Origin: a virus | Taxonomy: Duplodnaviria > Caudoviricetes | Reading direction: 5' to 3' (one strand) | IMG/VR virus record: IMGVR_UViG_3300010376_000034 | Coordinates: 5,575-69,574 of that record | DNA length: 64,000 bases | Part shown: piece after piece, positions 5,686 through 44,926 of the stretch | How positions within the stretch are numbered: the first letter of the stretch is position 1 | How the letters are laid out: every line of letters starts with the position of its first letter | The notes under the pieces: generated by a model | What the model was told of the DNA's origin: nothing | Database searches by the model: none | What the model saw: the letters and a program-made list of their open reading frames with translations, nothing else | Made by a program: the position numbers and the translations under genes

Positions 5686-8010
5686 TCAGAGTATCCGGTT
5701 TCCGCCGGGCATCTGCGTCGGCCACAGCTGACCCATGTACTGCCCGACCGGGGCCGCTTCCGGGTGAATCATAGCGCCTTGGGCGAGCTTCATGCGCTCC
5801 ACATTAGTCTTGTCGGCCGCGATTCGCTCGTTGGAAGCGCGCGCCTCGCGCTTATCCTGCAGCTGTATGCTCTCGATCAAGAGATTCATCCGCTCGCTCA
5901 GCTGTTCGAGGTTGGCTTTCATCTGACTTTCTTGGGTTTTCTGTGCCAACTCCTGGACCTTCGTCTGCATCTGCACCATTGCCTTGGCCTGATCGGACTG
6001 CGCCTTCGGATCTTGCGGCTGCTGGTTCGGGTCCGGCGGCGGCGCGAAGAGTTCATCCACGTCGCCCATGCCGACCATGGTGGCGATGCGCCGCACGACC
6101 GCGTGCAGATCCCACATTTGCGGGTTCATCTGCACCAGCTGCACCAATGCGACGGCCTTCATCACCCTGATCGTGTGCGAAGGCGTGTTCGGGTCGGCCC
6201 TTGGCGAGAGCGTGCACTTGAGGAGCGCGCGCAAGACATCTTCGGCTTCCCATTGGGCCGAGGGTGTTTGCTCCGCGGCGCACAACAGGGCCGCCGGGTC
6301 CTCGATAAACAGGTCGCGAAGAAGGGCGAACTCCTCGCCTTGGGCGATGTGCATGCCTTTATGGACGCTATCGAGCACCTTGACGGCTTGATCTAGCATC
6401 GCCAAGGTCGTGCCGACCGGCACGTCCTGGCGACCTTCCCCGACCATCAGTTCGGGCGTGCCGCCGACCCGTCTGGCTTCCTCTTCGATGTGTTGGGTCA
6501 CTTGGACGAGTCCGGCCGTGACGTCCTTGTAGGGTAGCGTCATCACGTGCTGGCCGATGGGCTGGCCGCCGGTGTTGATCTTAACCCCGGCCCCGAGTCC
6601 CACCCTAAAAGTCATCGTATCTTGGCGGCCGACGGTTTCGGAATAGAGGAAGCCGGGCCAAGAACTAAATCCGGCGCTGTCCAGAGCAAGCCGCCAGGCT
6701 GTGGTGACGGCGGCGGTAGCGTTGCCCATGATTTGAAGCAGGCCGATGCCATAGAAGCCCAGCCCGTCAATGAAGGGATATTTAACGATGGGCATGCGCT
6801 TGAGGTAACGATCGTCGCCTTCATTCCAGTTCCTGCGCACTTCGAGGATAGTTTGGGAGTCCTTGTCGATGGAAACGCGATAGGGCAGAGGCAATCCAGT
6901 GATCTTGCCGCCTTCGGTGTGTTGGAAACCGGCGATATCCAGTTCGCAGTAGCACTCGTACACGGTGTGTTTGTAGTCCTGCTGGCGCATCGACCACTTG
7001 GCGAGGCCAGCGACATCTCTCTCGGCCTCATCGGCGGCGTCGGATTCCGGCGGCGATGGCGGTTGAAGGTCGACGTCTAGATAGTTTCCAGAAAGCTGCA
7101 TGCGCCGCATCACGGATTGTCGCATCGGGATACGGTGCGTGACCCGGCCGCACTCGAAGAGGGAGACCTCGTTGTCGGAGACGATGATATCGTCGGCGTC
7201 GACCGAGCGGGAAACGGGTCTTCGTCGCACCGGGCAGCGATACACCTTCTTGAAGGCACAACCGCCGAACCCCTGCATGAAAAACATCCTATTCGTATCG
7301 GGGTAATATTCTTTATCCACAACCGTTAAGTAACGATTGAAAAGCGTTTCCAGGTCTTCCGCCAGAATGTCATCGTCGGCCCCGGTTTGGTCTCTCGGTT
7401 GATGGGTTTGGTCCTCCAGAAATCTCCGTCGAGGCGTTTTGATAGTGGCAGAGTTTTGCATCTTGACTGGGCCACCCGCGGGGAGAAGCTCACCACGAGC
7501 GTTGGCCTGAAAGCGCATTACCGCGTCCAGCAGAATGGGGGTGCGGATTGTGCTTTGGCCTTCGACCGCCGTATCGGCTTCGACGGTTGGAGCGCGCGGA
7601 TTCTCGATCTTAAGCGCAAGGTGCCGGATACCAGCGGCACGTCGGTCAAGCCAATCGCGCCGCGTTTCAATGTCCGCATCGATGCCATTTAAGAGGTCAT
7701 CGCAAATACGCGCGAGTTCGCGTTCATCGACGTGTTTGGCGAGGTTGGCGTCGTGTTTCTTGGCATTTTCGGAGGTGCTTTCCCGGGTAATCTTCTTGCC
7801 GTCGAGGCGGATAATAAGGCTTCCGTCGGCGCGCTCGATGCCGATTTCCTCCGGCGGGTTTTCGGCGCCCTCCTGCAGGAGGATCAGCAGATCGTCCGGC
7901 TCCTCGGTGGCGGGAACACGTCCGGGCACATCGTCGAGATTGCGGTAGTGCTCCGTCGGGCGAACCGCGTCAGGTCTTGCGCCGTTCATGCCGACTGGAT
8001 CACGGGCCAT
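5686..8010 (-). CDS. Portal protein (P22-like)
   Basis: 774 aa; motifs GCAFKKVY, ECYCELD, GFYGIGL, VGTTLA; C-terminal coiled coil; downstream of TerL. Confidence 0.85.
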   Translation of the reverse strand: MARDPVGMNGARPDAVRPTEHYRNLDDVPGRVPATEEPDDLLILLQEGAENPPEEIGIERADGSLIIRLDGKKITRESTSENAKKHDANLAKHVDERELARICDDLLNGIDADIETRRDWLDRRAAGIRHLALKIENPRAPTVEADTAVEGQSTIRTPILLDAVMRFQANARGELLPAGGPVKMQNSATIKTPRRRFLEDQTHQPRDQTGADDDILAEDLETLFNRYLTVVDKEYYPDTNRMFFMQGFGGCAFKKVYRCPVRRRPVSRSVDADDIIVSDNEVSLFECGRVTHRIPMRQSVMRRMQLSGNYLDVDLQPPSPPESDAADEAERDVAGLAKWSMRQQDYKHTVYECYCELDIAGFQHTEGGKITGLPLPYRVSIDKDSQTILEVRRNWNEGDDRYLKRMPIVKYPFIDGLGFYGIGLLQIMGNATAAVTTAWRLALDSAGFSSWPGFLYSETVGRQDTMTFRVGLGAGVKINTGGQPIGQHVMTLPYKDVTAGLVQVTQHIEEEARRVGGTPELMVGEGRQDVPVGTTLAMLDQAVKVLDSVHKGMHIAQGEEFALLRDLFIEDPAALLCAAEQTPSAQWEAEDVLRALLKCTLSPRADPNTPSHTIRVMKAVALVQLVQMNPQMWDLHAVVRRIATMVGMGDVDELFAPPPDPNQQPQDPKAQSDQAKAMVQMQTKVQELAQKTQESQMKANLEQLSERMNLLIESIQLQDKREARASNERIAADKTNVERMKLAQGAMIHPEAAPVGQYMGQLWPTQMPGGNRIL

Positions 8011-16902: not shown

Positions 16903-16941
16903 CGGGCGCCCCTTTGAGGGTTTCAACCAGGAGTCTAACCC

Positions 16942-17610
16942 ATGAACACGTGGAGAAAGAACGGCGATAGCTGGGCCGTTCAATGCGACACCGAGCAAGC
17001 ACCGGGCGCCGTGGTGACCGTGGTGACCCGCGCCGGCAAGGCAAAGACCGTCACGCTAGGCGAGCGACAGAATTTGCTCGGCTTCGTGTATGCCGTGGCC
17101 GATACCCGCCCCCAGGCGCAGGCAGTCGGCGACCTCGCAGGCGTCTTCGCCCTCTTCGACCGGGCCGCGACCTATATGCAGCGCCCGGCTGTCGTGATCG
17201 GCGTAGGCAAGCCCGGCTTCGACCCCAAGACCGGCAAGCCTGCCGAGGTGCTGGACTTCACCGTGCGGCTCAACATCGCTGGCGAGCGCGCCAAGGTCCC
17301 GGGCAGCATCACGGTCCTGGACGGCGAGCGCACCGAGGAAGGGCGCGACTGGTTTGGGCGTATCCTCCGGGATGGCAGCTATCAACCCTCCAATGCCACC
17401 AATGGCCGCACCGAGGCAATCACCGCCGCGTTGCGCCGCTTTGCGGCCGACCCCGCGACCGGCGCCAAGGAGTCGGCGCGCCTCACCGGGCGTTGCTGCT
17501 TTTGCAACACCGCATTGAAGGACGAGCGCTCGACCGCGGTGGGATACGGCGAGACCTGCGCCGCACACTTTGGCTTGCCGTGGGGCGAGCGGCCGGCCGA
17601 GAGGCTGTGA
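16942..17610 (+). CDS. DUF6011-like protein
   Basis: C-terminal GRCCFCNTALKDERSTAVGYGETCA. Confidence 0.65.
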   Translation: MNTWRKNGDSWAVQCDTEQAPGAVVTVVTRAGKAKTVTLGERQNLLGFVYAVADTRPQAQAVGDLAGVFALFDRAATYMQRPAVVIGVGKPGFDPKTGKPAEVLDFTVRLNIAGERAKVPGSITVLDGERTEEGRDWFGRILRDGSYQPSNATNGRTEAITAALRRFAADPATGAKESARLTGRCCFCNTALKDERSTAVGYGETCAAHFGLPWGERPAERL

Positions 17611-17611
17611 C

Positions 17612-17806
17612 ATGAAAACCCGCATCATCATCGATTGCAATGCTACCTGCTGGCTTGCGCACTTCGCCGAGGGCAACCCGTGGCACATGCCGGCAAACTG
17701 CTGGCTGCCGCTGCCTTGCGTGGCCGAGCACGCGACCGGCGCCATGGTCCGCGATCACCTGCACCGCCATTTCCCCGGCGCCAATGTCGTGGGGGTGTGG
17801 TCATGA
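17612..17806 (+). CDS. Hypothetical protein
   Basis: Starts 1 nt after the upstream stop. Confidence 0.45.
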   Translation: MKTRIIIDCNATCWLAHFAEGNPWHMPANCWLPLPCVAEHATGAMVRDHLHRHFPGANVVGVWS

Positions 17807-17883
17807 CGCGCATCGAGTTTTGGCTAGCGTGGTCGCTCGTGTGGTGGGTGATCGCGCTCGCACTCGCATATGGAGTCGCCTGA
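17803..17883 (+). CDS. Small single-TM peptide (MTRIEFWLAWSLVWWVIALALAYGVA)
   Basis: ATGA-coupled; hydrophobic. Confidence 0.35.
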   Translation: MTRIEFWLAWSLVWWVIALALAYGVA

Positions 17884-17923
17884 AAGGAGGTGAGGCCGCG
17901 CACCAGGGCGCAACCCCGCGCCC

Positions 17924-17975
17924 TGCGGTCCGCCGGTTCGCCCGGCGCTGACGAGGCCACGAGGCCGAAACCGCA
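17924..17975 (+). ncRNA. Hammerhead ribozyme, type III
   Basis: Stem III TGCGGT/ACCGCA, GUC cleavage triplet, stem I CGCCGG/CCGGCG, core CUGACGA, stem II GGCC-ACGA-GGCC, GAAA. Confidence 0.85.
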
Positions 17976-17992
17976 AACACAAGGAGTCTAAC

Positions 17993-19558
17993 GTGACGAC
18001 ACCGACCAAGAGCCAAACCCAAGCCGCCGACATTGCCGCGCTATTGCGCGCGCGCAATGCGGTGCTTTGGGTGAACTCCGCCGAAGAGGTGCGAGTCGAG
18101 CTTTACCTTGCGCAAGCCTGCGCGAGCGCCGGCTACAATCCCGTGTTCTGGGACTGCGCCGCCGGCATCACGGATCTGACCGGTAAGCTAATCGCCGGGC
18201 AGGAAACCCAAGACGCCACCGAAGCGCTCAAATATATCCGCAACCGCGCACGCCAGGGCGCCGACCGCATCGTCTACATCATGCGCGATCTGCACAAGTG
18301 GCTAGACGGCGCAATCGGAATCCAGACCCTGCGCCAGCTGCGCAACCTCGCGCGCGAGCTTCCCCCGCTCGCCGCCTCCATCATCGTGCTGGCACCGTCC
18401 GGGAACATTCCCCCCGAGCTTGCCGGCGGCGATGCCGTGGTGATCGAGTGGCCGCTCCCCGACCGCACCGAAATCGGCGCCATCCTCGACACCGCCATGA
18501 AGAACGGCGGCGCCAAGGTGGAACCGCTGAACGGCCAACGCGATGCAGCCATTGACGCGGCTGTGGGCTTGTCGGGCCTGGAGGCGGAGGCGTGCTTTGC
18601 CAAGAGCCTCGTGCAGTCGCGCCGCATCGACCCGGCGGTGATCGCGGCCGAGAAGAAGCGAGTCATTGCCCGCGCCGGGGTGCTGCAATGGATGGAGCCT
18701 CTACCGGGCGGCTTCGATTCAGTCGGCGGCTTGGATGTGGTGCAGGCATGGATTGCGGCCCGCGTCATCGCCAACAGCCCCCGGGCCCGCGCCTACGGCT
18801 TGCGGCCGCTGCGCGGCATTTTCCTTGCCGGCGTTAGCGGTTGCGGCAAGACCTACCTCGCCAAGGCGATAGCGTGGGCGCTGGGTCGCGTTCCCATGCT
18901 GCGCCTCGACCCGGGCGCGCTGAAATCCAAGTTCATGGGAGAGAGCGAGCAAAACTTTCGCAAGGCGCTCGCCACCATCGAGAGCGTGGGCCCGTGCGTC
19001 GTCCTGGTGGACGAGTTCGAGAAGGCGTTTGCCGGCAGCACCGGCCCGCAAGGCGACGCTGGTGTCAGCGCCGACCAAATGGGCGCGTTCTTGACCTGGA
19101 TGCAGGAGCGCACCTCGCCGGCCTTCCTGGTGGCGACCGCAAACGATGTGACCGGCTTGCCCCCCGAGGTGTTGCGCAAAGGGAGGTGGGATGAGTTGTT
19201 CTGGGTGGACCTCCCGACCGCCCGCGAACGTGTCGAAATCCTTAACGCCACGCTGCGCACCAAAGGCCGCGAGGCAATGGACGAATACACAGCGCTCATC
19301 AAACCGACAGAAGGCTTTTCCGGCGCCGAGCTTGCCGCGCTGGTGGACGAGGCAATGTTTGCGGCGTTTGCCGACGGCGAGCGCGAGTTGACACTAAACG
19401 ACCTCGCCGAGGCGGCGCGCAACGTCGTCCCGCTCTCGGAAACCGCTAAGGAGAAAATCAACGCCATGCGCGCGTGGGCAAAGGGCCGCGCCCGCCCGGC
19501 GACCACGCCCGAAGCCGAGCGCAGCGCGCAGACTGGCCGCGCGCTGGACTTGTCCTAA
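17993..19558 (+). CDS. AAA+ ATPase (SpoVK/Ycf46/Vps4-like)
   Basis: GVSGCGKT Walker A, VLVDEFEK Walker B, VATAN sensor 1, LPPEVLRKGRWDE arginine finger; degenerate N-terminal AAA domain. Confidence 0.9.
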   Translation: MTTPTKSQTQAADIAALLRARNAVLWVNSAEEVRVELYLAQACASAGYNPVFWDCAAGITDLTGKLIAGQETQDATEALKYIRNRARQGADRIVYIMRDLHKWLDGAIGIQTLRQLRNLARELPPLAASIIVLAPSGNIPPELAGGDAVVIEWPLPDRTEIGAILDTAMKNGGAKVEPLNGQRDAAIDAAVGLSGLEAEACFAKSLVQSRRIDPAVIAAEKKRVIARAGVLQWMEPLPGGFDSVGGLDVVQAWIAARVIANSPRARAYGLRPLRGIFLAGVSGCGKTYLAKAIAWALGRVPMLRLDPGALKSKFMGESEQNFRKALATIESVGPCVVLVDEFEKAFAGSTGPQGDAGVSADQMGAFLTWMQERTSPAFLVATANDVTGLPPEVLRKGRWDELFWVDLPTARERVEILNATLRTKGREAMDEYTALIKPTEGFSGAELAALVDEAMFAAFADGERELTLNDLAEAARNVVPLSETAKEKINAMRAWAKGRARPATTPEAERSAQTGRALDLS

Positions 19559-19560
19559 GC

Positions 19561-19604
19561 TTGCAGCCCATGCCGCGCTGTGGAGGGCGCGGCATGACCG
19601 GCAG
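19561..19604 (+). repeat. TTGCAGCC-hairpin-(AC)CGGCA intergenic element, copy 1
   Basis: CATGCCGCGC/GCGCGGCATG stem between conserved flanks. Confidence 0.7.
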
Positions 19605-19613
19605 GCTAATCGC

Positions 19614-19642
19614 TTGACCGCTGTGCCATCGTGGCATAGTAT
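19614..19642 (+). promoter_or_regulatory. Putative sigma70 promoter with an internal palindrome
   Basis: TTGACC-17 nt-TAGTAT; spacer contains TGCCA-TCG-TGGCA. Confidence 0.65.
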
Positions 19643-19666
19643 CAAAACGCAACAGGAGTCTGACAA

Positions 19667-20452
19667 ATGATACTCAATACCACCATCCGCCCGGGTCTGC
19701 TGGTGCACGTGTCCACCAGCATCAAGGGCAATGTGAGCTACGACGTCACCCGCCTTGGCACCAAGCAAACCGTTGAAGGCGAAATAGAAGAATGGGACAC
19801 CAAGCGCTTGACCCGCGACGTTGACGAGCAAGAACGCGCCAGCAAAGCGCGCTCCCTGGCACGCTCCAAGATTCAGTCGGTGTGCATTCCCATCGAGCCG
19901 GGCGGCTTGCTGTGCCCGCAAGACCGCGCCGACCAGCTGGCGCTTGCCGAAGCGGAAGCGCTGCGCATCGTAGAGGAGTTCAACGACTCGGCGCAGATCA
20001 CCCGGCTCACGTTTCGCGTGGTCACCGGCAGCATCGCCCCCAGCGATGCCCGCGCAATCAAGATGATTAACCAGGAGTTGCGCGACCTCATGGAGTCGAT
20101 GGCCGAAGGCATGGCGAGCCTGGACGTCAAGAAGATCCGCGAGGCCGCCGACCGCGCCACCCAGGTCAACAAGATGCTCCCCAGCGAAACCGGCGAGCAA
20201 GTCAAGAAAGCAATCGAGCTTGCGCGCAAGACCGCAACCGATATGCGCAAGGCCGCCGAGGTAGGCGCCGCCGAAGTTGACCAAGTTGCTATCGCGCGCA
20301 TTCAGGAAGCCCGCACGGCGTTTCTGGACCTGGACGACAACCAAGGCACCATCGGCGAGGTGGAACACGCCGGCCGCTCGCTGGACCTCGCACCCGAGGC
20401 GCCGGCGCCCGTAACCGAGCCGGCCGCGCAAGGCCGCATGTTCGAGGTGTGA
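19667..20452 (+). CDS. DUF3150-like helical protein
   Basis: Helical 261-aa protein following the AAA ATPase; family assignment from recall only. Confidence 0.45.
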   Translation: MILNTTIRPGLLVHVSTSIKGNVSYDVTRLGTKQTVEGEIEEWDTKRLTRDVDEQERASKARSLARSKIQSVCIPIEPGGLLCPQDRADQLALAEAEALRIVEEFNDSAQITRLTFRVVTGSIAPSDARAIKMINQELRDLMESMAEGMASLDVKKIREAADRATQVNKMLPSETGEQVKKAIELARKTATDMRKAAEVGAAEVDQVAIARIQEARTAFLDLDDNQGTIGEVEHAGRSLDLAPEAPAPVTEPAAQGRMFEV

Positions 20453-20586
20453 CCGTGGACGACAAGATAGCGTTAGCTTTTTTCTTGGGCTTTGTCCTTG
20501 GCATCCTTGCCACATCGCCACTCGGAAAAGCCGCCAACGACTGGCTGACTTATGGCCGTGTGCCTTGTGACGATTCTTGCGGATAA
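20449..20586 (+). CDS. Small single-TM protein
   Basis: GTGA-coupled; IALAFFLGFVLGILA. Confidence 0.35.
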   Translation: MTVDDKIALAFFLGFVLGILATSPLGKAANDWLTYGRVPCDDSCG

Positions 20587-20597
20587 GGAGTCTGACA

Positions 20598-20945
20598 ATG
20601 CCATGTGATCGCACACTGAAACCTCGCCAGACTATCAGCGAGCGCGCGGCCGAGGTGCGTCAGGCGACGGAGCGGCTTGCGGCCGCTCTCGCCGCCGGGC
20701 GCGCGCGCGTCGTCATCAACAAGGCAACCGGCGCTATTGCCTTCACCGGCTGGGACGAAGCCAGCCGCGACGGCATCACCGACGCTTGCGCGTACCGCAG
20801 GATAATGGCGACCGGCAACGCCATGGCCCGCCTCGCCATCGAAAAGGCCGAGATACTTGCCGGGCGCAAGGTGGACAAGCAACAGGTCGCCTTGGGCGCC
20901 CACTCTCACGACGGGGGCGCCACATGGCACAGCCACAAGGGTTGA
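20598..20945 (+). CDS. Hypothetical protein (AAA-module associated)
   Basis: AGGAGTCTGAC RBS; MPCD...HSHDGGATW. Confidence 0.7.
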   Translation: MPCDRTLKPRQTISERAAEVRQATERLAAALAAGRARVVINKATGAIAFTGWDEASRDGITDACAYRRIMATGNAMARLAIEKAEILAGRKVDKQQVALGAHSHDGGATWHSHKG

Positions 20946-21124
20946 ACCCGAAGGCACAACAGGCCGGGCGCGACTATGCAAGCGAACTTGTCGCGCTCGC
21001 CATTCAAACGGCGTTGAAGGACTTCCCGGGCGACCACGCGGCGCAGTTCGCTTTCCTGGCGAGCTTGTTCGCCGAGCTTCGCCGCATCAGCGCGCGAGGC
21101 CAGAACGAAGGATTCCGACTATGA
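20942..21124 (+). CDS. Hypothetical protein
   Basis: TTGA-coupled ORF. Confidence 0.45.
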   Translation: MNPKAQQAGRDYASELVALAIQTALKDFPGDHAAQFAFLASLFAELRRISARGQNEGFRL

Positions 21125-21348
21125 CGACAAAAACACCATACGAGAGCATCGACCTCGCCCGCATGTATCCCGACCTCCATCGCGTATGGCAAACGCACAT
21201 GGCGAACCGCGCGATGATTCACGAGCTTGTGGATACGTTGCAAGTAATCGCCGACAAGATCGACCGCGCGTCAGGTTCGCCGACGTTTACCTCCGAGGAG
21301 CATGACACGCTTGTCGCGTTGCTCGCCAAGGTAAGGGGCGAGCCATGA
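21121..21348 (+). CDS. Hypothetical protein
   Basis: ATGA-coupled ORF. Confidence 0.55.
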   Translation: MTTKTPYESIDLARMYPDLHRVWQTHMANRAMIHELVDTLQVIADKIDRASGSPTFTSEEHDTLVALLAKVRGEP

Positions 21349-21551
21349 CGCGCCAGATCAACCGCGCCCTCCTGGCGACCAGCTTTCGCCGCATCGCCCA
21401 CGCCGCCAGTGTGATCGCGGAGGTGCTAGGCGAGGACGAGCAACTTAACAACGCCGTGCCGGCCAACTGGCCGCTCGCGCTTTCCGCCGACGAGTTCGCC
21501 GCCGAATGCTTCGCGATGGCGGAACACTACGAGCAACCCGACCATGAGTGA
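21345..21551 (+). CDS. Hypothetical protein
   Basis: ATGA-coupled ORF. Confidence 0.55.
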   Translation: MTRQINRALLATSFRRIAHAASVIAEVLGEDEQLNNAVPANWPLALSADEFAAECFAMAEHYEQPDHE

Positions 21552-21630
21552 GCTTAGCTACCTGCTGGCGTTGGAACGCATGCACAACGTCAGCATCTAC
21601 ATCCGCATGCTGGACGCAAGGAGTCTGACA

Positions 21631-21894
21631 ATGACGAATCTTAACGACCCGGTTCTCAACTCTTTTTTCGCGAAAAAGAAGGAGGCCGCCACACGCAAAC
21701 GCGAGCAAGAGAAAATCGACAAGCGAGTCGAGCGCGCCTACTACGCCACGTGCAGCGGAATCCAAATCGACATCATGGACATCGGCAAAGTGTTCGAGGC
21801 CGGCCGCGACGCACTGAGGATGACGCCCGGACTCAACGACGAACAGCTTGGCATTGCGATCCGGCGCTACGTCGAAACCATCCGCAAGAACTGA
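21631..21894 (+). CDS. Hypothetical protein
   Basis: AGGAGTCTGAC RBS before MTNLND. Confidence 0.6.
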   Translation: MTNLNDPVLNSFFAKKKEAATRKREQEKIDKRVERAYYATCSGIQIDIMDIGKVFEAGRDALRMTPGLNDEQLGIAIRRYVETIRKN

Positions 21895-21936
21895 TTGCAG
21901 CCCATGCTCATCGCGAGGTGGGCATGACCGGCAATC
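21893..21936 (+). repeat. TTGCAGCC-hairpin element, copy 2
   Basis: GATTGC AGCC CATGCTCA..TGGGCATG ACCG GCAATC. Confidence 0.75.
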
Positions 21937-21967
21937 CGCCGAACCCCGTGAGAGAAGGAGTCTAACC

Positions 21968-22513
21968 ATGGGACAATACCACAAGATCGTGAACCTCGAC
22001 CGCAAGGAATATCTCAACCCGCACAAGCTAGGCTGTGGCCTGAAGCAATGGGAACAGCTTGCGAACCATCCGGGAACCGGCGCCGCGCTGCTGGTGCTGC
22101 TGGCATCTGCCTCGACCGGCGCAGGCGGAGGCGACTTTGCCGGCGGCAATGTAGTGGGCCGCTGGCGCGGCGACCGCATCGCCATGATCGGCGACTACGA
22201 CGACGACGTGACGTATGACACAGGGCAGATCGCCGCTGTTAGGTCCGAGCGCATGACTGGCGCAGCAATCTACAGCGCATGCGACCCCGAGCCGGAAAAC
22301 GGCGAGTCCTGGACCGACGTTAGCGACGACGTTGCTCGCGTCATCGAGGCCGAGCTTGCCGGTCGCTACACCGTGGAGCCCTGGACCATCGAATACGAGG
22401 ACGGCCGCAAGGAACACCGCACCGACGGTTGGCGGCATTTCATCGACAACGAAGACCTGCCCAAGGCCAAGAAGAAGAACCCGCGCCTGATCTTCCCGAC
22501 CGACGCGAGGTGA
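21968..22513 (+). CDS. Conserved phage hypothetical protein
   Basis: AGGAGTCTAAC RBS; MGQYHKIVNLDRKEYLNPH...GRWRGDRIAMIGDY. Confidence 0.7.
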   Translation: MGQYHKIVNLDRKEYLNPHKLGCGLKQWEQLANHPGTGAALLVLLASASTGAGGGDFAGGNVVGRWRGDRIAMIGDYDDDVTYDTGQIAAVRSERMTGAAIYSACDPEPENGESWTDVSDDVARVIEAELAGRYTVEPWTIEYEDGRKEHRTDGWRHFIDNEDLPKAKKKNPRLIFPTDAR

Positions 22514-22559
22514 TTGCAGCCCGGAGGCGTCCGCTGCGGCGCCTCCTCACGGCAATCAC
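22510..22559 (+). repeat. TTGCAGCC-hairpin element, copy 3
   Basis: GTGATTGC AGCCC GGAGGCG..CGCCTCC TCACG GCAATCAC. Confidence 0.7.
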
Positions 22560-22581
22560 GCCAACAAGGAGTCTGACCGAC

Positions 22582-23040
22582 ATGACCGACCTTCAAGACC
22601 TGTTCGCCCTCGCCGCCGAACACGCCGCCTACATCTTCAAGGAGAAAGGCGAGGTTGTGGCCATGTGGCACACCGTGGACGCCAATGACCAGCACACCGT
22701 GATCGTGACGCCGTGGAAGGACTCCGACGAAAAACGCGAGCTTGTGCAGGCGTTGCGCACCATGTTCAAGGCAATCGGCGTGACGCGCTATGTTTTCATG
22801 TGCGAAGCGTGGGCGCTGGTGACGGGCGATATGGCCGAGGTGAATCGGTACATCGGCCGTGTCGGCGAACACCCCGACCGCCGCGAAATTCTCACCGTCC
22901 GGGCCGAGGACAAGGACGGCAACCAAATGGCCGGCTGGTATTATATCCTGCGCCCCGAGCACGCGCCGGCCACGCTCTCGCCGCTGCACATGAGCGAGGC
23001 CGACCACACCGAGGGGGCCCTGACGGGTATGCTCAAATGA
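22582..23040 (+). CDS. Hypothetical protein
   Basis: AGGAGTCTGAC RBS; RYVFMCEAW motif. Confidence 0.65.
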   Translation: MTDLQDLFALAAEHAAYIFKEKGEVVAMWHTVDANDQHTVIVTPWKDSDEKRELVQALRTMFKAIGVTRYVFMCEAWALVTGDMAEVNRYIGRVGEHPDRREILTVRAEDKDGNQMAGWYYILRPEHAPATLSPLHMSEADHTEGALTGMLK

Positions 23041-23279
23041 ACCCATTCGCGCGACGGCTTGCCTTGTTGGTCAGCGACTACGGCAGCACACACCCTAACG
23101 CGATCACCGCCGCGCAACTGATGACGGCCGAATGTCTCTATATGGCCGCGAAGCTTGTGGCGTTCGGTTCGACCATGCCGGTCGATTCATTCTTGCAAGG
23201 CGCACGTATCGCCTACGAGCAAGCCACAAAGGACAGAGAGAAGGCACTCGCCGAGGGTGCCGTGGACACAAGGCACTGA
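23037..23279 (+). CDS. Hypothetical protein
   Basis: ATGA-coupled ORF. Confidence 0.5.
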   Translation: MNPFARRLALLVSDYGSTHPNAITAAQLMTAECLYMAAKLVAFGSTMPVDSFLQGARIAYEQATKDREKALAEGAVDTRH

Positions 23280-23281
23280 CC

Positions 23282-23503
23282 ATGACACCGCACGAATACG
23301 AGGCGGCGCGCAATGCGCTAGGCTGGACCCATGCCGAGCTAGCCGAGGCCATCGGCGTGGCGCCGCGCACGCCCTACCGCTACGCCAACGGCGAGGTGGA
23401 TATGCCCGAGCCGGCGGCGCGCCTCTTGCGCCTGCTGGTACGGACGCGCCTCACCGGAAGCGCGAAGAAGTTTGCAACCCTCGTGAAGGAGTTACGAGCA
23501 TGA
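23282..23503 (+). CDS. XRE-family helix-turn-helix regulator
   Basis: ARNALGWTHAELAEAIGVAPRTPYRYANGE. Confidence 0.8.
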   Translation: MTPHEYEAARNALGWTHAELAEAIGVAPRTPYRYANGEVDMPEPAARLLRLLVRTRLTGSAKKFATLVKELRA

Positions 23504-23796
23504 CCCTGTTGCACACAACGACGTTCGACTACCTCAACCCGAGCCAACGGCAAAAGGCGAGGATGCAGGTGCTTCGCCAAGCGGCCAAAGACTACGCCGC
23601 CACGCTTGAAGAGAACTTACCAGACGGGCCCGACAAGACTTACACGCTGCGCAAGCTGCGCGAGGTAGCGATGTGGGCAAATGTCGCCGTAACCAGAAAC
23701 ACCGACGGCGCCCCGCGCGACGAAGCCGAGCGTGTGCTGGTCGACTATCCGCCCGGCCATCCGGCCGAGGGCGACCTCGGCAGCTTTCCGACTTGA
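23500..23796 (+). CDS. Acb2/Tad1-family hairpin protein (putative immune-signal sponge)
   Basis: FDYLNPSQRQKARMQVLRQAAKDYAATLEENLPDGPDKTYTLRKLREVAMWANVAVTRN. Confidence 0.65.
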   Translation: MTLLHTTTFDYLNPSQRQKARMQVLRQAAKDYAATLEENLPDGPDKTYTLRKLREVAMWANVAVTRNTDGAPRDEAERVLVDYPPGHPAEGDLGSFPT

Positions 23797-23857
23797 AAAA
23801 AATATTTTCGGTCGCAGAAGCCCGCTAACAACGGGCACATCTCGCAACGACCATCTC

Positions 23858-23920
23858 CGAAAACGTGCGACTTGTCTCGGTAACGCCTGGAGTCAAGTCG
23901 GCGAAAACGTGCGACTTGTC
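23858..23920. repeat. Two perfect 19-bp direct repeats with an inverted core between them
   Basis: CGAAAACGTGCGACTTGTC at 23858 and 23902; CAAGTCG between. Confidence 0.85.
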
Positions 23921-24108
23921 CTTATGTGGTGTGAGCGCGAAACGCGAATCAGCGAAAAGCGCGGACCCCTCGTGCTATGATGCTGATGTTCGGTCAGTCA
24001 GACCGGACCCTGGCTGTTTGACATGTGAATATGCGAACAGAAAACCCGGAGCGCCGTCACGCGCTCCGGGCCAGGTATCCTCAGAACCAAGTTGAAGGAG
24101 TCTCAACC

Positions 24109-24631: not shown

Positions 24632-24940
24632 TCAACTGGCCGCACTCTCCGGGGTGCGGTCTTTTTCTTTTATCAGCTGACGCGCCAGCTGCACGCGCTC
24701 GTCGCCGGCGATGGTTGCGGCTTCCTCCGCTGTCGGCGCCCGCAACCGCATGTCGTCGCCCTCCCAAACCATCGGGGTGCCGCAATAGAAACACAGCGAA
24801 ACATCGCCGGGCTTTGGCGCCGGCCCCTTCCTGCGCTCGAAATCGAAGCCAAAAGCCCCGTCGAGGATCTTACCGCAACCGACGCAAGCGCTTTCGAGCG
24901 TGTGGACGTTGCGACCAAAATGAACCTCGCGCTTTTTCAT
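24632..24940 (-). CDS. Hypothetical zinc-ribbon protein
   Basis: CVGC...CFYC. Confidence 0.5.
   Translation of the reverse strand: MKKREVHFGRNVHTLESACVGCGKILDGAFGFDFERRKGPAPKPGDVSLCFYCGTPMVWEGDDMRLRAPTAEEAATIAGDERVQLARQLIKEKDRTPESAAS
24638..24670 (+). terminator. Rho-independent terminator ending the early operon
   Basis: GGCCGCAC-loop-GTGCGGTC followed by TTTTTCTTT. Confidence 0.8.
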
Positions 24941-38280: not shown

Positions 38281-41200
38281 TTAGAATGTGGGAGCCCGCT
38301 TTTCGACGGCAGCCCGACCGCGTTCTAGCACGCGGCGTGCACGTAGCATATTGGCCAGCTGCTGTTCGTCGATCTTTTTGAAACGCTGGTCCTTCTGCGC
38401 GTCCGTAAGGTTCGGGTTAGCAGCAATGGCATCGCGCTGTTTATAGAGGGCGTTGTTGGCCTTCTGTGCGGCCTTGAACGCCGGCGCCGCTCGCATCTCC
38501 GGCCCCGGCGTCTTGCGTTGCGCCGCCGCCTCGACCTCCAGACGTTGCTCCCGGTAGAGCGCACGCATCGATCCCGGCGTCGGGGCTTCGCCATAAAACC
38601 TGCGCGCAAACGGGATCTTTTCTTGCTGCCACTCCTGTCCGTTGTACCAGCGCGTTCCGCTGGTCAGCATATTCATGCCAAAGCGGCCGAGACCCCCGGT
38701 CACGAAGCCCGTGAGATAGTCAAGAACCTCCGGGTGGATGTCGACGTATCCTGGCGTCTTCTTGTCGCCGCCGGTCCATTCGTTGAGCGTCCTGGCCGCC
38801 CACTTGGAAGCAGCGCTTGTACCGGGAAGGGTAAAGCCCTCCGACTTCGGCTTGAATTTGCTCCACGATTGCTCGTCGGGATAAATGGTTCGCCCGAACG
38901 CATCCTTGTTGAGAAGCAGCTGTGAGATAGGCTTGGCGATGGTCGGCACGAAATGCGACCAGCCTTCGTCCTGTCCCAGCGGATCGACGGCCTTGATGGT
39001 ATCCCAGAACATGCCACTAGCCGCCTTGGCAGCGTTGCGGTGATCGAACGCGAACTGCGCCATGTGGTCGCCAATGCCGGCGAACATGCCAAAGAAGAAC
39101 GGCTTCGGGATCATGACGTACTTCCCGCTGCCGCTCGGGTCCATGAAGATGAAATTCAACTCGCGCCGGTAGGCCGGGATATGAGAGTAGTTCGATTGCC
39201 CATCCTCCGCCGTGCCGCCGGCGAAGATATTGTAGGTGGCGAGCGCCGCACCGCTCGCGGTCAATGCACGCGCCGCTTTCCGCGCGCGGACAGAATTTTT
39301 CAGCGCCTGGGCACCGCGCACCGTGCCCTGCAGGCCAGCGTTGGCAAACATATAGAGGCTGGACAGCCATCGTTGCTCGCCGCGGCGATTGAAGTTGACT
39401 GTCGCCTCGCGGGCCATCATCGCAGCCTGCGGTCTTGAGAAGCCATTGTCGCGTGCCGCGTTGTAGACGGCCAGGCGCGTGGTGTTCTCGATCGTCATGT
39501 TGATTCTATCGATGCCGTTGACGACGGCGCCGGCGGCGTTCTTCAGCGTGTTGAGCGTCCCATCTTGCGCGCGGGCAAGCATTTTCTCGAAGTTGGCCTG
39601 GTGCTCCGCCGCATCCATGCCCCAGGAGAAACCAATCTTGCCGCCGTCCTCCACGAAGTCGCGGTAGCGTTGTGCCTGGAAGCTGGTGCCCCCTTCCGGC
39701 CCGGACCATGCGCCTTCCAGTGCAGGGACCAGGTGCTTGCGGAAGGAGGAGACCAGCCGCGCTTGCTGGTCGGCCGGCAGATTGATGAATGCCTCGCCGG
39801 CGTCACGGATGAAGTTGGAGATGACGAACTCGGGATTGAGCGAGGTATTCAAGCGGGCAAGCTGCCGCGTCACCCAACTTATGCCGCGCAGGACGTCGCC
39901 GACTGGCTGTTGCTCCATGTTCTTGAGCGCACGGATGAGCTTGCCGCCATACTCGCCCTTGAAATAGACGTGCCGTTCTACGCCGTTGTCCTTCCAGATG
40001 TAGATGCCCGGGTCCTGCTTCCACATCGGATGCACCATCTCCGCCACCTGCCCGGTCTTCGGATCGATATAGCGGTACATCGGCTTCTCGGTCGTGCTCC
40101 ACAGGTCGGGCTCGCGATTCATGTTTACAAACTTGTCGACGGCTGCGCCCACCTTGTTCTTCTCGCCGCGTGCGATGGCACGGTTCATCTGCATCATGGC
40201 GTACTGGATCGGATTGTCCGCTCGCGACAACCGGCCGAATGCCTGCTGGCTTTCCTTGCCGCGAACGTCCGCACCACGGCCGATGCCCATGATGTCGCCG
40301 ATTTCGGTGTGACGCATCGGCACGTAGTTGGGCCAGCGCGCGCGCCACGCCGCCGCCGTCTGCGCATCGAGAAGCCCGTCTCTCACCATCCCATCGAGCG
40401 TGCCGTCGATCATGTTGCGCAGGATCTTCCACGATCGGTCGAAGGCCGCCTGCCGGGGGACGGCTGCGGCCTTGATACGTTGCGCCTCGGCATCGGACAT
40501 ACCGGCGGGATCGGCGAGGTTGGGATTGATCCTGCGTAGCTCGCGGTTGCGTTCCTCCGCGTGCATCGCCTGGGCGTACTCGCCGAACTCGTCGTAGCCC
40601 AGGCCGTCCTTGGCCATCTGTTCCGCCAGCGGCTTGGTGTAATCTTCCTCCGCTGCTTTCTCGCGCGCGGCTCGCTTGCCGTGCGAGAGTGCCTCCACCT
40701 GGTAGGGGTTTGCCTCGTCGGGCAGCACCGCCCCCGGGTTGTCGCGCATCCATTGCTCGGCGGCGCGCCGCCAGCGCAGGAAGGCATCCTGTGTCTTCAC
40801 CCGCGCCTCGGTGGGATTGCGCATCCATTCCGGGGCGCCCTTGGGAACGAGTCTACCGGCGGCGCGGAAAATCCCGCCGAAACTTGCGTAGCTCTTGGTC
40901 GCCATCGCTTCGTTGGCGGCATCCATGATCAGCGGGAAGCGCTTCGAGAACAGGTCTCCCTGGTTTACGTCGTCGCCGAACAAGCCGACGTCCATCGGTT
41001 TCTGTTCGACCTTGGGCTTGAGCGGCGCCTCGGTTCGAAGCTCTTTCAATCGCCTTTGGATGGCGGACCTTTCTCCCGACGGCTCCTCTTGCGTACCGGA
41101 AAGACGACGGTCGTAAGCTATTTGACGCAAGCGTTGCTCGAGCAACTCTCGCTCGTTTGGTCTACCGCGTGCGAACTCAAGAGTTGAGCGTTGTTCGGCA

Positions 41201-44200
41201 CCCGGGATGACCAGCTGCGGCTTGCCTTCGGCGCCAGGCTCCTCCTTTGGAAAGAGACCTTCGGCGCCAGGCGGCATGGCCTTGCGTGGCGGTGCCGGTT
41301 CGCCAGCTTCCTTCGCATAGGCTGCATCGAATTTCGCGGTAGCTTCTTTGTATTTCTCGGCCGCCTTGCCGAACGTGGCGGTGCTCATATTGCCCTTGCG
41401 AAAACGCTGCCGCGCCTCGTCGTACTCGCGATAGGCTTTGTCATGCTCGTCGATCGCGCGCTGATATTCCGGCGAGGGCTGCGGCATCTCCTCTTTGATC
41501 GGCCTGCGCTGCCGCTGGTTTAGCTCGTTGCGACGAACATTCGCGCGACCGTGCGCAACGCCTCTATCGCTCTCTTTCGGTCCATACTTGTAGCTGGCGG
41601 CTACCTCGCCAGTAGAACGATCCACGACCTCATAAACCCGCCTGTCGGGATCGTTACGAACGTCGTAGAACTTTCGCTCCTCCGCCATCGGCCTGCGCTG
41701 TCGCTGCGCCTGGAGGATCTGCGCAAGCTCCTCATCAGACGCGCCGCGCGTGATCGCACGCTGGATTTCCAGCTTGGGCTCGGTTGCCTCTATTGCCTTT
41801 TGACCAAGCGTCATCGCCGTTTCCAGCAGCGACGGTGCGCCCTCGCGGGCCTCCATGATCTTTTCCAACCCGGGCTTGAACTTGGTCGGTACGCCTAGCG
41901 AACGCCGCACCAACTCCACCATCGCGTCCCAGGCGTTGCCGAACACTCGCCCCAGCATCTCGCTGAAAGCCTTCGGCGTGGGCGCGCTGTGCAGCGCCTC
42001 CTGCAGAATCGGGTTGCTGAAAACCTCCGCGACGAACTCGTGCGGGTCGGTCAGCGCATAGACAGGCCGGCCCTCTGGAGTCTTGAGCGCCGGCTTCAGC
42101 GCTCCCATCATCAGCTTGATGGCCTTCTTCACCTGCTTGCTGGTCTCGATGCCCAGCTGGGTAGCCGCGTGCGTCGCTTCGTGCAGCAACGTATGTGCAC
42201 GGTCCGCGGGGCTGCCGCCCCATGCCTGGTCGGCATTCACGAAGATGAAGGTGCGCGGCTTGCCGTTCGCGTCAGCGTCCTGTACCCATAGTCCGTTAAC
42301 CCTCTTGGTAGGGTCACTATTATGGGTGAAGTCCTGCAGGTCACGTTCGGAAATAAAGTGGACCGGGGTGTCGCCAACGATCCTGGCAAGCCGGGTGCGA
42401 ATCCACTCGGCGACGCGACGGGGGACCTCGGGCCAGTCGGCGGGGATGGGCAACTCGCTGAGCGCCTTATTAAGGGGCAGCGAGTCCAGAAGGTCGATTT
42501 TGCGGCCGACCTCGCGCTGTGCAAGATAGTCTACGAACCCTAAGTCTTCGGGGCTTGCTTCTTGGCGAGGAGGTTGGCGAGCCTCACCAGGCCCTTGTTC
42601 GCGTGGGCTCGGCCCAAGAGGCGCTTCTTCACCTCGGGGTCCTTCTCCCGGTTCGCGGCCTGGATAAACTTCCTCGCCGCCTCCGCGCACTCCTGGGCGC
42701 TTCTCACCGTATGCCTCCTCCCGCCAGGCGGCCGCCTGATCGTAGGCTTCCCGCGGATCGTCGACTTCACCACGATACAACGCTTCCGACGCGCTGCGCA
42801 AAGTATCAGGGTCGAGTTCCTCGTCACGGAGACCCTGTTCGCGGAACGCATCCCGGATACGTTTCTCTGCTGCGGCGACGCCTTGGGAATACTCGTCCGG
42901 CCGGCGCACACCGGCAGCCTCTTCTCCCTGTGCCCATACCCGGCCTTCCGGGCTCTTGGCCTTGCGTGCTCGCCAGTCTCTATCCATGGCGTCAAGCAGC
43001 TGGGGGACAGTGCTTGTCGCCTCTGCGCCGCTCCAATACCCGGGATCGTCCAGGTAACGTCCGATGACCGCTGCTTCGCGAAGTTGGTCGAGCGTGAGGC
43101 CACCCTTGCGGATGTAGCCGCGGGGCAAATCCATGCTGCGCACGTCGCCGATTAGCGGATCGTCCGGGCTGATGCCCCGCTGACGGATCATGTCCATCAA
43201 CGACTGTGGCTTGCCACCCCGCGCACGTGCGGGGGCGGGCGCCGGCTCCCGCGCGCTTTCTAATATGCGACGAACTTGTTCTCCATCACGGTAGCCAAGC
43301 ATATAGCTGTCGCGTGCAGCACCTCGACCTTCGCCTCTATAGTTGTTTGCGAGTCCATCTTCATAACCATTACGTTCCCATCCTTCACGAGGTTTAGACT
43401 GTAACTCTGTTAAAAGCCTTGTTTCTGAAGGAGATAAACCACCCGGCTCCGGCACGCGAGGCGGCTCCGGCGGTGGCGCCTCCGCTCCACCAGGCGGTCG
43501 CCATCCTTCCGCAACGGCTTTATCCCAGGCTTCCTCATAAGGAATGCCTTCGGTTCGCTGGATGACCGATGGGGTACGCGGCTTCTCCCGCGCGCGAGGC
43601 GGCTCATATCCCGGAGGGGCCGGCTCGACCGTCGCCGGTCTTTCCGGCCATCCAGGTATTCGCTCGGTCACCCACTCAGGCGGCTCCTCGCCTTCTCGCG
43701 GCGCGCCCTCGAAGATGTCCTCGGGGGGCCTTTCCGCGCGAGGCGCCGCTTCCGGCGGACGCTCCGGCTCTCGCGGAGGACGCGGCGGCTCGACGCGAGG
43801 GGGCTCAGGGCGAATACGCGGTGCAGGCGCGGCAGCTGCCGGCGTAACACCCAGCACCTTCCCCATCTGATCGACGATACTCGGCGGCGTCGCTTGCGAC
43901 GGTGGCTCGATTGACTGCGCAGGTGGCCGCGACGGCTCACCCTCCCCACCACGAAGCGCCCAGTCGAACAAGTCAGGCGCCACGCCAGGCCGCTCTGGCT
44001 GAGAAGGAGCCGGAGAACCAGACGGCGGAACAATCGTAGTCTCTTGTCCTGTTACCCCTGGTTCGCGTGGCGCCCCCGCGAATATGTCCTCGGCCGCTGC
44101 CGGTGGCTTGGGCTCAGCCGCGGGAGGCGCCTCGGGTTCCGGCTTCGGTTCGGCCTCCGGCTTTCCCCGGATACGTTGCCACACTCGTCCCGCGGCCTTG

Positions 44201-44922
44201 CCGGCAACCACAGGGGCAGCACCGATCATCCCTGCCAACGCAGCCTCTCCGGCCCCTTGAAAGGCTTGCTCTGGCGGCAGACCGGTGAGGTAGTTCTGAA
44301 TTATCTGCGCGCCGGCGCCGATTGTGGGCTGACCCAGCACCTGCACAAAAACCCTGAGAGGCAGACCAAACATGGCCGCTGTTGCAGCCGCGCTTACGCC
44401 TGAGCTTTGCAAAGCTCCACGAAGCGCCTGATCTTCCGGGATACCGGCTTCAAGATTCGCACGAAACGCAGGGCCGTATTCGGTGACGAACTGAGTGAGA
44501 CCGGAAGCAAACATCCCGCCCAGCGGGCCACCGGCCACCCCGTAGGCGGCCATTGCCGGCGCGCCGCGCCCGAACATGTGGCCCCACCAATAGGGATGAC
44601 GCCATCCTTCAGTGACTGGTAGCTCGGCAACATCAGGGCGAGTGACCGGAGATTCCGTCGGCTCGGCCGGCGGCTTGCCGCGCAACCGATTAGCGAGCAT
44701 CTCGCCGGTCTCAGCGGCCCCGGCTACGGCGGACTCCAGCCCTTGTCCCGCGCCTTCTAGGAATCCTGGCTCTGCCCGCGGCTCTGTCCTTGCCTCGCCC
44801 TGCCGCACAAAGCGTACCGGCGGCGCTAGTGAGGCCGGCACTTCCTGTCCGGGCTGCACAGCCGGCGGCTCTGGGGTGTAGTCCCCCTCCTTCGGCGCAC
44901 CCGCGAAAAGATCATCGGCCAT
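38281..44922 (-). CDS. Large polyvalent (ejected) protein with a zincin-like HExxH domain and an LPD38-like C-terminus
   Basis: TLLHEATHAAT...HEFVAEVF; C-terminal YVMIPKPF...PTIAKPISQLLLNKDAFGRTIY...VDIHPEVLDYL. Confidence 0.75.
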   Translation of the reverse strand: MADDLFAGAPKEGDYTPEPPAVQPGQEVPASLAPPVRFVRQGEARTEPRAEPGFLEGAGQGLESAVAGAAETGEMLANRLRGKPPAEPTESPVTRPDVAELPVTEGWRHPYWWGHMFGRGAPAMAAYGVAGGPLGGMFASGLTQFVTEYGPAFRANLEAGIPEDQALRGALQSSGVSAAATAAMFGLPLRVFVQVLGQPTIGAGAQIIQNYLTGLPPEQAFQGAGEAALAGMIGAAPVVAGKAAGRVWQRIRGKPEAEPKPEPEAPPAAEPKPPAAAEDIFAGAPREPGVTGQETTIVPPSGSPAPSQPERPGVAPDLFDWALRGGEGEPSRPPAQSIEPPSQATPPSIVDQMGKVLGVTPAAAAPAPRIRPEPPRVEPPRPPREPERPPEAAPRAERPPEDIFEGAPREGEEPPEWVTERIPGWPERPATVEPAPPGYEPPRAREKPRTPSVIQRTEGIPYEEAWDKAVAEGWRPPGGAEAPPPEPPRVPEPGGLSPSETRLLTELQSKPREGWERNGYEDGLANNYRGEGRGAARDSYMLGYRDGEQVRRILESAREPAPAPARARGGKPQSLMDMIRQRGISPDDPLIGDVRSMDLPRGYIRKGGLTLDQLREAAVIGRYLDDPGYWSGAEATSTVPQLLDAMDRDWRARKAKSPEGRVWAQGEEAAGVRRPDEYSQGVAAAEKRIRDAFREQGLRDEELDPDTLRSASEALYRGEVDDPREAYDQAAAWREEAYGEKRPGVRGGGEEVYPGREPGEGPRGEEAPLGPSPREQGPGEARQPPRQEASPEDLGFVDYLAQREVGRKIDLLDSLPLNKALSELPIPADWPEVPRRVAEWIRTRLARIVGDTPVHFISERDLQDFTHNSDPTKRVNGLWVQDADANGKPRTFIFVNADQAWGGSPADRAHTLLHEATHAATQLGIETSKQVKKAIKLMMGALKPALKTPEGRPVYALTDPHEFVAEVFSNPILQEALHSAPTPKAFSEMLGRVFGNAWDAMVELVRRSLGVPTKFKPGLEKIMEAREGAPSLLETAMTLGQKAIEATEPKLEIQRAITRGASDEELAQILQAQRQRRPMAEERKFYDVRNDPDRRVYEVVDRSTGEVAASYKYGPKESDRGVAHGRANVRRNELNQRQRRPIKEEMPQPSPEYQRAIDEHDKAYREYDEARQRFRKGNMSTATFGKAAEKYKEATAKFDAAYAKEAGEPAPPRKAMPPGAEGLFPKEEPGAEGKPQLVIPGAEQRSTLEFARGRPNERELLEQRLRQIAYDRRLSGTQEEPSGERSAIQRRLKELRTEAPLKPKVEQKPMDVGLFGDDVNQGDLFSKRFPLIMDAANEAMATKSYASFGGIFRAAGRLVPKGAPEWMRNPTEARVKTQDAFLRWRRAAEQWMRDNPGAVLPDEANPYQVEALSHGKRAAREKAAEEDYTKPLAEQMAKDGLGYDEFGEYAQAMHAEERNRELRRINPNLADPAGMSDAEAQRIKAAAVPRQAAFDRSWKILRNMIDGTLDGMVRDGLLDAQTAAAWRARWPNYVPMRHTEIGDIMGIGRGADVRGKESQQAFGRLSRADNPIQYAMMQMNRAIARGEKNKVGAAVDKFVNMNREPDLWSTTEKPMYRYIDPKTGQVAEMVHPMWKQDPGIYIWKDNGVERHVYFKGEYGGKLIRALKNMEQQPVGDVLRGISWVTRQLARLNTSLNPEFVISNFIRDAGEAFINLPADQQARLVSSFRKHLVPALEGAWSGPEGGTSFQAQRYRDFVEDGGKIGFSWGMDAAEHQANFEKMLARAQDGTLNTLKNAAGAVVNGIDRINMTIENTTRLAVYNAARDNGFSRPQAAMMAREATVNFNRRGEQRWLSSLYMFANAGLQGTVRGAQALKNSVRARKAARALTASGAALATYNIFAGGTAEDGQSNYSHIPAYRRELNFIFMDPSGSGKYVMIPKPFFFGMFAGIGDHMAQFAFDHRNAAKAASGMFWDTIKAVDPLGQDEGWSHFVPTIAKPISQLLLNKDAFGRTIYPDEQSWSKFKPKSEGFTLPGTSAASKWAARTLNEWTGGDKKTPGYVDIHPEVLDYLTGFVTGGLGRFGMNMLTSGTRWYNGQEWQQEKIPFARRFYGEAPTPGSMRALYREQRLEVEAAAQRKTPGPEMRAAPAFKAAQKANNALYKQRDAIAANPNLTDAQKDQRFKKIDEQQLANMLRARRVLERGRAAVEKRAPTF

Positions 44923-44926
44923 CGCA

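Follow-up and report, generated by a model that had tools for sequence, protein, structure and literature searches.

A type III hammerhead ribozyme motif ahead of a phage AAA+ ATPase gene and the elements that occupy the same junction in related phages

In bacteriophage T7, the polycistronic transcript of the early genes is cut at RNase III sites in the gaps between genes, which leaves hairpin-capped ends. Hammerhead ribozymes differ from these sites in that they act without a host enzyme and leave a 5'-OH and a 2',3'-cyclic phosphate. Hundreds of hammerheads were described from bacteria and phages by Perreault et al. (2011, PMC3088659), many of them flanking single prophage genes, and for the phage and prophage representatives cleavage was observed both in vitro and in E. 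coli. They were proposed to cut long phage transcripts into mRNAs the length of one gene or one operon (PMC3088659). The hammerhead of HF1/HF2, HHphage, lies 13 nt before a helicase start, and in HF2 a mapped 5' end is at most 3 nt from the cleavage site (PMC3088659). In a 2019 review the purpose of bacterial and phage hammerheads was given as undefined (PMC6765202).

The element described here is a new example of these already known phage hammerheads (Perreault et al., 2011, PMC3088659). It was found in a stretch of 64,000 nt, hereafter the window, which runs from base 5575 to base 69574 of an IMG/VR virus record of 69,574 bp that is rated complete. As in the published phage and prophage hammerheads (PMC3088659), a consensus core is placed between same-strand genes and the presence of the element varies among related phages, a documented arrangement to which the original prediction had also referred in stating that hammerheads are known in some phage intergenic regions. 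Unlike the hammerhead clusters of prophages, the window has one ribozyme, and the neighbouring operon junctions carry stem-loops that are not ribozymes. HHphage of HF1/HF2 is alike in preceding the start of a gene for an ATP-dependent enzyme by few nucleotides (13, against 17 in the window) and in belonging to a polycistronic unit of non-structural genes, but it has a core variant needing high Mg2+ and resides in an archaeal virus, whereas the core in the window is canonical and the phage genome has a G+C content of ~62%. Topology and core are likewise shared with RF00008, whose members come from viroids, satellite RNAs and eukaryotes and whose model matches the window element over its full length; in contrast to these members, the window element is DNA-encoded in a dsDNA phage and not in a rolling-circle replicon, and its stems and loops are shorter than in most members of the RF00008 seed.

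The hammerhead occupies the gap between a small ORF and an ATPase gene, in a region (~12.6 to 24.6 kb of the window) where every gene is on the + strand. Promoter-like and terminator-like sites were not found near this gap; the nearest lie at 19614-19642 (promoter-like) and 24638-24661 (strong terminator). With all genes on the + strand and no such site close by, transcription most likely yields the ribozyme as part of a polycistronic RNA. The small upstream ORF (17803..17883, + strand, stop UGA at 17881-17883) encodes a hydrophobic peptide of 26 aa (MTRIEFWLAWSLVWWVIALALAYGVA) for which no Pfam family was found. ORFs that overlap the hammerhead itself on either strand were rejected as shadow ORFs; they have no Pfam family, and conservation ends at the upstream stop codon. 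Downstream, the ATPase gene (17993..19558, + strand, 521 aa) begins with GTG at 17993, 17 nt after the end of stem III, and its product contains the Pfam domains AAA (PF00004, 6e-23) and AAA_lid_3 (PF17862), so both the distance and the AAA ATPase assignment of the original prediction hold. The protein matches PHROG 8638 (3.5e-151) and is 46% identical (aa) to AAA-ATPase gp96 of Mycobacterium phage Corndog; among cultured phages, Corndog-like mycobacteriophages hold its nearest relatives at this same level of identity, and a blastn comparison of the locus with cultured phages gave no match. The ribosome binding site had been placed just 3' of stem III, where the Shine-Dalgarno sequence AAGGAG is indeed found at 17981..17986 (+ strand) with a spacing of 6 nt to the GTG. 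It belongs to an extended RBS motif, AGGAGTCT, that is present at eight + strand gene starts within 7 kb (16929-24103) and has nine matches in the window against 0.86 expected. The motif appears to mark the block 16929-24103 as a set of co-regulated genes.

The assignment of a complete type III hammerhead ribozyme to 17924..17975 (+ strand) was correct letter for letter, and is based here on direct reading, folding, RF00008 and a descriptor search. Stem III (6 bp) pairs UGCGGU at 17924-17929 with ACCGCA at 17970-17975 and is followed on its 5' side by C17 at 17930. Stem I (6 bp) pairs CGCCGG at 17931-17936 with CCGGCG at 17942-17947 around the 5-nt loop UUCGC, the core segment CUGACGA (C3-A9) occupies 17948-17954, stem II (4 bp) pairs GGCC at 17955-17958 with GGCC at 17963-17966 around the 4-nt loop ACGA, and GAA (G12 A13 A14) at 17967-17969 leads back into stem III, all on the + strand. 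Cleavage is predicted between C17930 and C17931, the position that had been named beforehand. By the sequence and pairing features that Perreault et al. (2011, PMC3088659) required of hammerheads, the invariant core is complete (C3 U4 G5 A6 N7 G8 A9, G12 A13 A14, A15.1 as A17970, U16.1 as U17929 and H17 as C17930), and zero deviations occur over 13 core positions and 16 helix pairs. All three helices are Watson-Crick, and the pairs adjacent to the core (1.1-2.1, 10.1-11.1 and 15.1-16.1) are C-G, G-C and A-U without a mispair; stem II starts with G10.1 and ends with C11.1, and the 3' strand of stem III starts with A15.1. Loops close stems I and II, and the 5' and 3' ends lie in stem III, which is the type III topology. 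When the isolated 52-mer was folded, its minimum free energy structure was exactly the hammerhead three-way junction, at -24.6 kcal/mol. Judged from the letters, UCG of loop I and CGA of loop II could form a 3-bp pairing. Contact between loop I and loop II is needed for fast cleavage at cellular Mg2+.

The Rfam hammerhead models, to which the original prediction had pointed as a check, agreed in part: RF00008 matches the full length of the element, and the match lies below the curated gathering cut-off. No Rfam family reached its gathering score in the whole window, and the Rfam scan by E-value gave a misaligned type II match only because of clan competition; this type II model scores 16.8 bits and does so only with the core misaligned. 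Run separately, RF00008 (Hammerhead_3) aligns over model positions 1-54 of 54 with 38.1 bits (E 2.9e-8 for the 69.6-kb genome), below its gathering cut-off of 48.5. The type III hammerheads of 19 other phage IMG/VR loci, all with a canonical core, also fail to reach the RF00008 gathering score; therefore, standard Rfam annotation with the Hammerhead_3 cut-off misses the whole phage type III class. The sub-threshold score reflects the Rfam model and not this sequence, the cut-off being a database setting and not a property of the ribozyme.

A descriptor of the core bases with stems of at least 4, 3 and 4 bp, stem lengths looser than those observed, was run on both strands and matched once in the window and not at all in 200 random 64-kb sequences of a first-order Markov model; even a much looser descriptor gave 0.03 matches per random window. 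These results bear on the reading that G+C-rich intergenic sequence resembles a hammerhead here by chance and that there is no ribozyme. The folding-energy z-score of the motif is unremarkable (-1.2) and Rfam yields no match at gathering score, as such a reading would have it, but the RF00008 E-value and the descriptor search effectively refute it, and the same stem I signature is present in 21 other phage contigs, always within a hammerhead. We regard chance as extremely improbable, and the motif as very probably a real ribozyme.

To place the element within a wider class, IMG/VR was scanned with a pattern confined to the core and a stem II like that of the window (CTGANGAGGCCNNNNGGCCGAAAC), which matched at least 119 contigs. 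Stems I and III, H17 and U16.1 accompany the pattern in 117 of 121 listed matches (63 type III and 54 type I); this completion by parts outside the pattern is non-circular evidence, and such matches are therefore taken to be ribozymes. When 33 distinct type III members from the matches listed were aligned with the window element, the alignment was 98.8% paired and had double changes in 10 of 16 pairs, figures that count for less since the members were selected by pairing, and the covariation they express is at the level of the class. A close orthologue with the same type III ribozyme was not found among the relatives of the window phage.

The type III members follow two rules of layout, although the counts of contexts behind them are not independent events because many contigs are related to each other. 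First, in 43 of 45 non-redundant type III contexts among the matches listed, the 60 nt that follow stem III contain a Shine-Dalgarno-like motif and the start codon of an ORF encoding at least 50 aa. The distance to the gene start is mostly 14-30 nt, and the 17 nt of the window is typical. The same arrangement occurs in 19 of 53 type I contexts among the matches listed and at 15% of random positions of the same loci; the type I and type III contexts compared share the same stem II (IMG/VR loci L018-L136). Second, the 46 nt that end at the cleavage site have a mean folding energy of -14.8 kcal/mol in type III contexts, against -8.4 kcal/mol for stretches drawn at random from these loci. Of 44 contexts, 29 have a perfect hairpin with 6 bp or more that ends no more than 10 nt from the cleavage site, compared with 19% of control positions; counted by stem I family, 12 of 18 have one. 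The sequences of these hairpins vary within families.

The window has such a hairpin. The separate preceding hairpin of the original prediction is present as an 8-bp stem, CAGGGCGC-AACCCC-GCGCCCUG, at 17904..17925 (+ strand), with a predicted pair probability of ~1.0; it has 2 nt in common with stem III and ends 5 nt before the predicted 3' end of the upstream fragment. Further upstream, GGCCGC at 17894..17899 (+ strand) is the complement of GCGGUC at 17925-17930, and the helix they form rivals stem III and covers the cleavage site. The lowest-energy structure predicted for the 136-nt context, as for every context tested, contained this alternative helix; its predicted pair probabilities in context were 0.4-0.7, compared with 0.05-0.15 for stem III. 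The hammerhead fold is within 0-0.9 kcal/mol of the alternative fold in a model that omits tertiary energy.

One possible consequence is that the ribozyme is conditional. While the RNA is being made, GGCCGC would sequester C17 and the stem III strand within an extended hairpin; the ribozyme would then cleave slowly, or only after the helix had been opened, for example by a ribosome that terminates at the UGA, 11 nt farther upstream. Instead of being constitutive, cutting would depend on translation of the peptide encoded upstream. Besides the prevalence of the alternative helix in the predicted structures, its transcription ahead of the 3' strand of stem III and the position of the upstream stop codon, 11 nt 5' of GGCCGC, agree with this scheme. 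On the other hand, a low stem III probability is typical of the phage type III class (median 0.05, found in 70% of members, tertiary contacts being ignored), and the competing helix was accordingly rejected as the mark of an unusual ribozyme. A 6-bp complement could also arise by chance in a sequence of 65% G+C, and as no orthologue was found, conservation gives the GGCCGC helix no support. Because the two folds are nearly equal in energy and a low stem III probability is normal for the class, we hold a regulatory function of this kind to be unlikely.

The reading that we prefer is that of a constitutive processing site. The hammerhead would lie inside a polycistronic + strand phage transcript, its three-way junction would form once transcribed, and the RNA would cut itself between C17930 and C17931. 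The upstream fragment would then end with the stable 8-bp hairpin, 5 nt and a 2',3'-cyclic phosphate, and the downstream fragment would carry a 5'-OH followed by the hairpins of stems I and II, the RBS, the GTG start and the AAA+ ATPase gene; in the predicted downstream product the RBS is left largely unpaired. By this cut the ATPase message would be parted from the upstream small genes, and both new ends would be structurally capped. The principal routes of RNA decay in bacteria are known to act poorly on ends of these kinds. That cleavage takes place, and that it affects RNA stability or translation, may be expected from established hammerhead chemistry and the published phage examples. A cut in the polycistronic message before the ATPase gene is supported by the placement of the element and by the fillers of the same junction in relatives, and the processing model as a whole, with a working type III hammerhead, is in our judgement probable.

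Relatives of the locus were collected via the ATPase protein. The two closest by ATPase identity, L144 (79% aa) and L006 (71% aa), have in common with the window the gene for the 26-aa peptide, kept in sequence and frame up to its stop codon, and the RBS (ACAAGGAGTCT); beyond the stop codon the gaps differ. In L144 and L006 the gap is filled, without a ribozyme, by UGAUUGC-AGCC, a variable stem and then ACGGCAAUCA. This is the stem-loop element that stands at three other operon junctions of the window, at 19556..19606 directly after the ATPase stop and at 21890-21936 and 22509-22558 (all on the + strand; 3 matches against 0.12 expected). Conserved flanks enclose a variable inner part: UGAUUGC, often together with the stop codon, and AGCC are followed by an inner stem of 10-12 bp and by (A/C)CGGCAAUCA, and each copy in the window spans the region from the stop codon to just before the extended RBS motif. 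These operon stem-loops are ~20 bp with an internal loop, their outer and inner stems covary with compensatory changes at 8 of 15 pairs, and in the relative G001 the element flanks the ATPase gene on both sides. By analogy with the early RNA of T7, the stem-loop elements are possible RNase III-type processing sites. A promoter-like sequence, TTGACC-17-TAGTAT, lies at 19614-19642 (+ strand), immediately 3' of the stem-loop element of the ATPase gene.

An origin of the window's gap by insertion of the hammerhead into an L006-type stem-loop, with remnants kept, was rejected as unsupported: some similarity can be seen by eye, but the gapped alignment was no better than shuffles (p 0.23), nor were those with the three paralogous stem-loops (p 0.40-0.82).

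Other relatives have yet other sequences at this position. L142 (57% aa) has a type II hammerhead that ends 14 nt before the ATPase start. L155 (the same contig as L008) and L156 also carry this type II ribozyme; pairing in its stems I and III is kept by compensatory changes, and in L155 it lies one small gene farther upstream of the ATPase gene. In L153 and in mycobacteriophage Corndog a promoter-like site directly precedes the ATPase gene, and a hammerhead was not found upstream of the Corndog ATPase gene. The remaining relatives have no gap before the gene. From these comparisons we infer that hammerheads of type III and type II, a ~20-bp stem-loop and a promoter are alternative ways to set the transcript end before the ATPase gene. 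Taken with the class-typical placement of the ribozyme, this swap of fillers fits an RNA-processing role at the junction.

The variation among relatives also bears on whether the ribozyme is still active. It could be a decaying or inactive relic that was carried in by recombination, keeps its consensus through recency and has no productive tertiary contacts, with little activity at cellular Mg2+; the real function of the gap would then belong to the hairpins alone. In favour of a relic, the junction is free of ribozymes in the closest relatives, the two loops are only 5 and 4 nt long with a contact that is predicted at most, and the score is below the Rfam cut-off. A relic would nevertheless have had to retain every one of its 13 core positions and 16 helix pairs and a spacing to the RBS that obeys the rule of the class, and the UCG/CGA pairing between its loops is possible. 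Moreover, nearly all consensus-core examples tested by Perreault et al. cleave (PMC3088659). An inactive relic is, in our view, slightly more doubtful even than conditional cleavage, and we retain a working ribozyme as the preferred reading.

As to its ancestry, the window element resembles the type II hammerheads (RF02276) of L142, L155, L156 and 17-19 contigs with the same signature, which have the stem I CGCCGG-N5-CCGGCG or a close variant of it and the same core; that of L142 is also alike in its position before the orthologous ATPase gene. The type II relatives are circularly permuted, with stem II open and stem III closed as a hairpin, whereas in the window stem II is closed and stem III open, and the separate upstream hairpin occupies the place of the type II stem III hairpin. 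Stem I and its flanks, GUC-CGCCGG-N5-CCGGCG-CUGANGAG, are found in 21 further IMG/VR contigs, where the matches comprise 17 strict and 2 near type II hammerheads and three type III copies in two contigs (L169 and L173). Like the window, these type III copies have an A-U-closed hairpin 5 nt before C17, at the position where type II forms have their stem III hairpin, and L142 has stem III arms identical to those of the window hairpin, AGGGCG/CGCCCU. At about an even chance, the window ribozyme is a likely permuted derivative of the type II family with the CGCCGG stem I; the argument for a type II origin is post hoc and the register of homology ambiguous. Before the ATPase gene of L140, at ~640-736, hammerhead-like halves, CUGAUGAG ... 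GGGCGAAAGGGG, are found along with CUGAUGAGACC. Their order is wrong for any hammerhead topology and a valid ribozyme could not be assembled from them; they are possibly the debris of rearranged type II ribozymes.

A broader scheme can be put forward more tentatively, and we would give it somewhat less than an even chance. It holds that a ribozyme and a protein-dependent stem-loop, probably of RNase III type, are interchangeable at one junction; that phage type III hammerheads are two-part modules, in which a 5' hairpin caps the upstream product and the hairpins of the ribozyme cap the downstream product; and that the window element is a type III permutant of a mostly type II family, its upstream hairpin replacing the lost stem III hairpin. 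If this is true, the ATPase junction is a natural swap experiment on the role of phage hammerheads. As one more ribozyme locus the window adds little, and its value is comparative: differing fillers between the same two genes are the pattern expected if the transcript end before the ATPase gene matters, and the variants of the junction are matched natural constructs for what a ribozyme-made end does to a phage message. Worth keeping are the exchange of elements before the ATPase gene and the pair of layout rules for phage type III hammerheads, with RBS and start codon downstream and a hairpin upstream.

Several observations were made in passing. Three type III hammerheads each are present in L054 and L075, and two each in L055 and L169, within a few kb; these multi-copy IMG/VR loci resemble the clustered prophage hammerheads of the literature. 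On the minus strand of the window, 38281-44952 and 48215-56077 are giant ORFs of 2223 and 2620 aa, situated within the presumed virion module. L061 contains at 6019-6086 (- strand) a type-P5 twister ribozyme that scores 49.5 bits, above the Rfam cut-off, and lies ~220 nt from a type III hammerhead at 6309-6360 on the same strand, a co-occurrence that is known in phage DNA.
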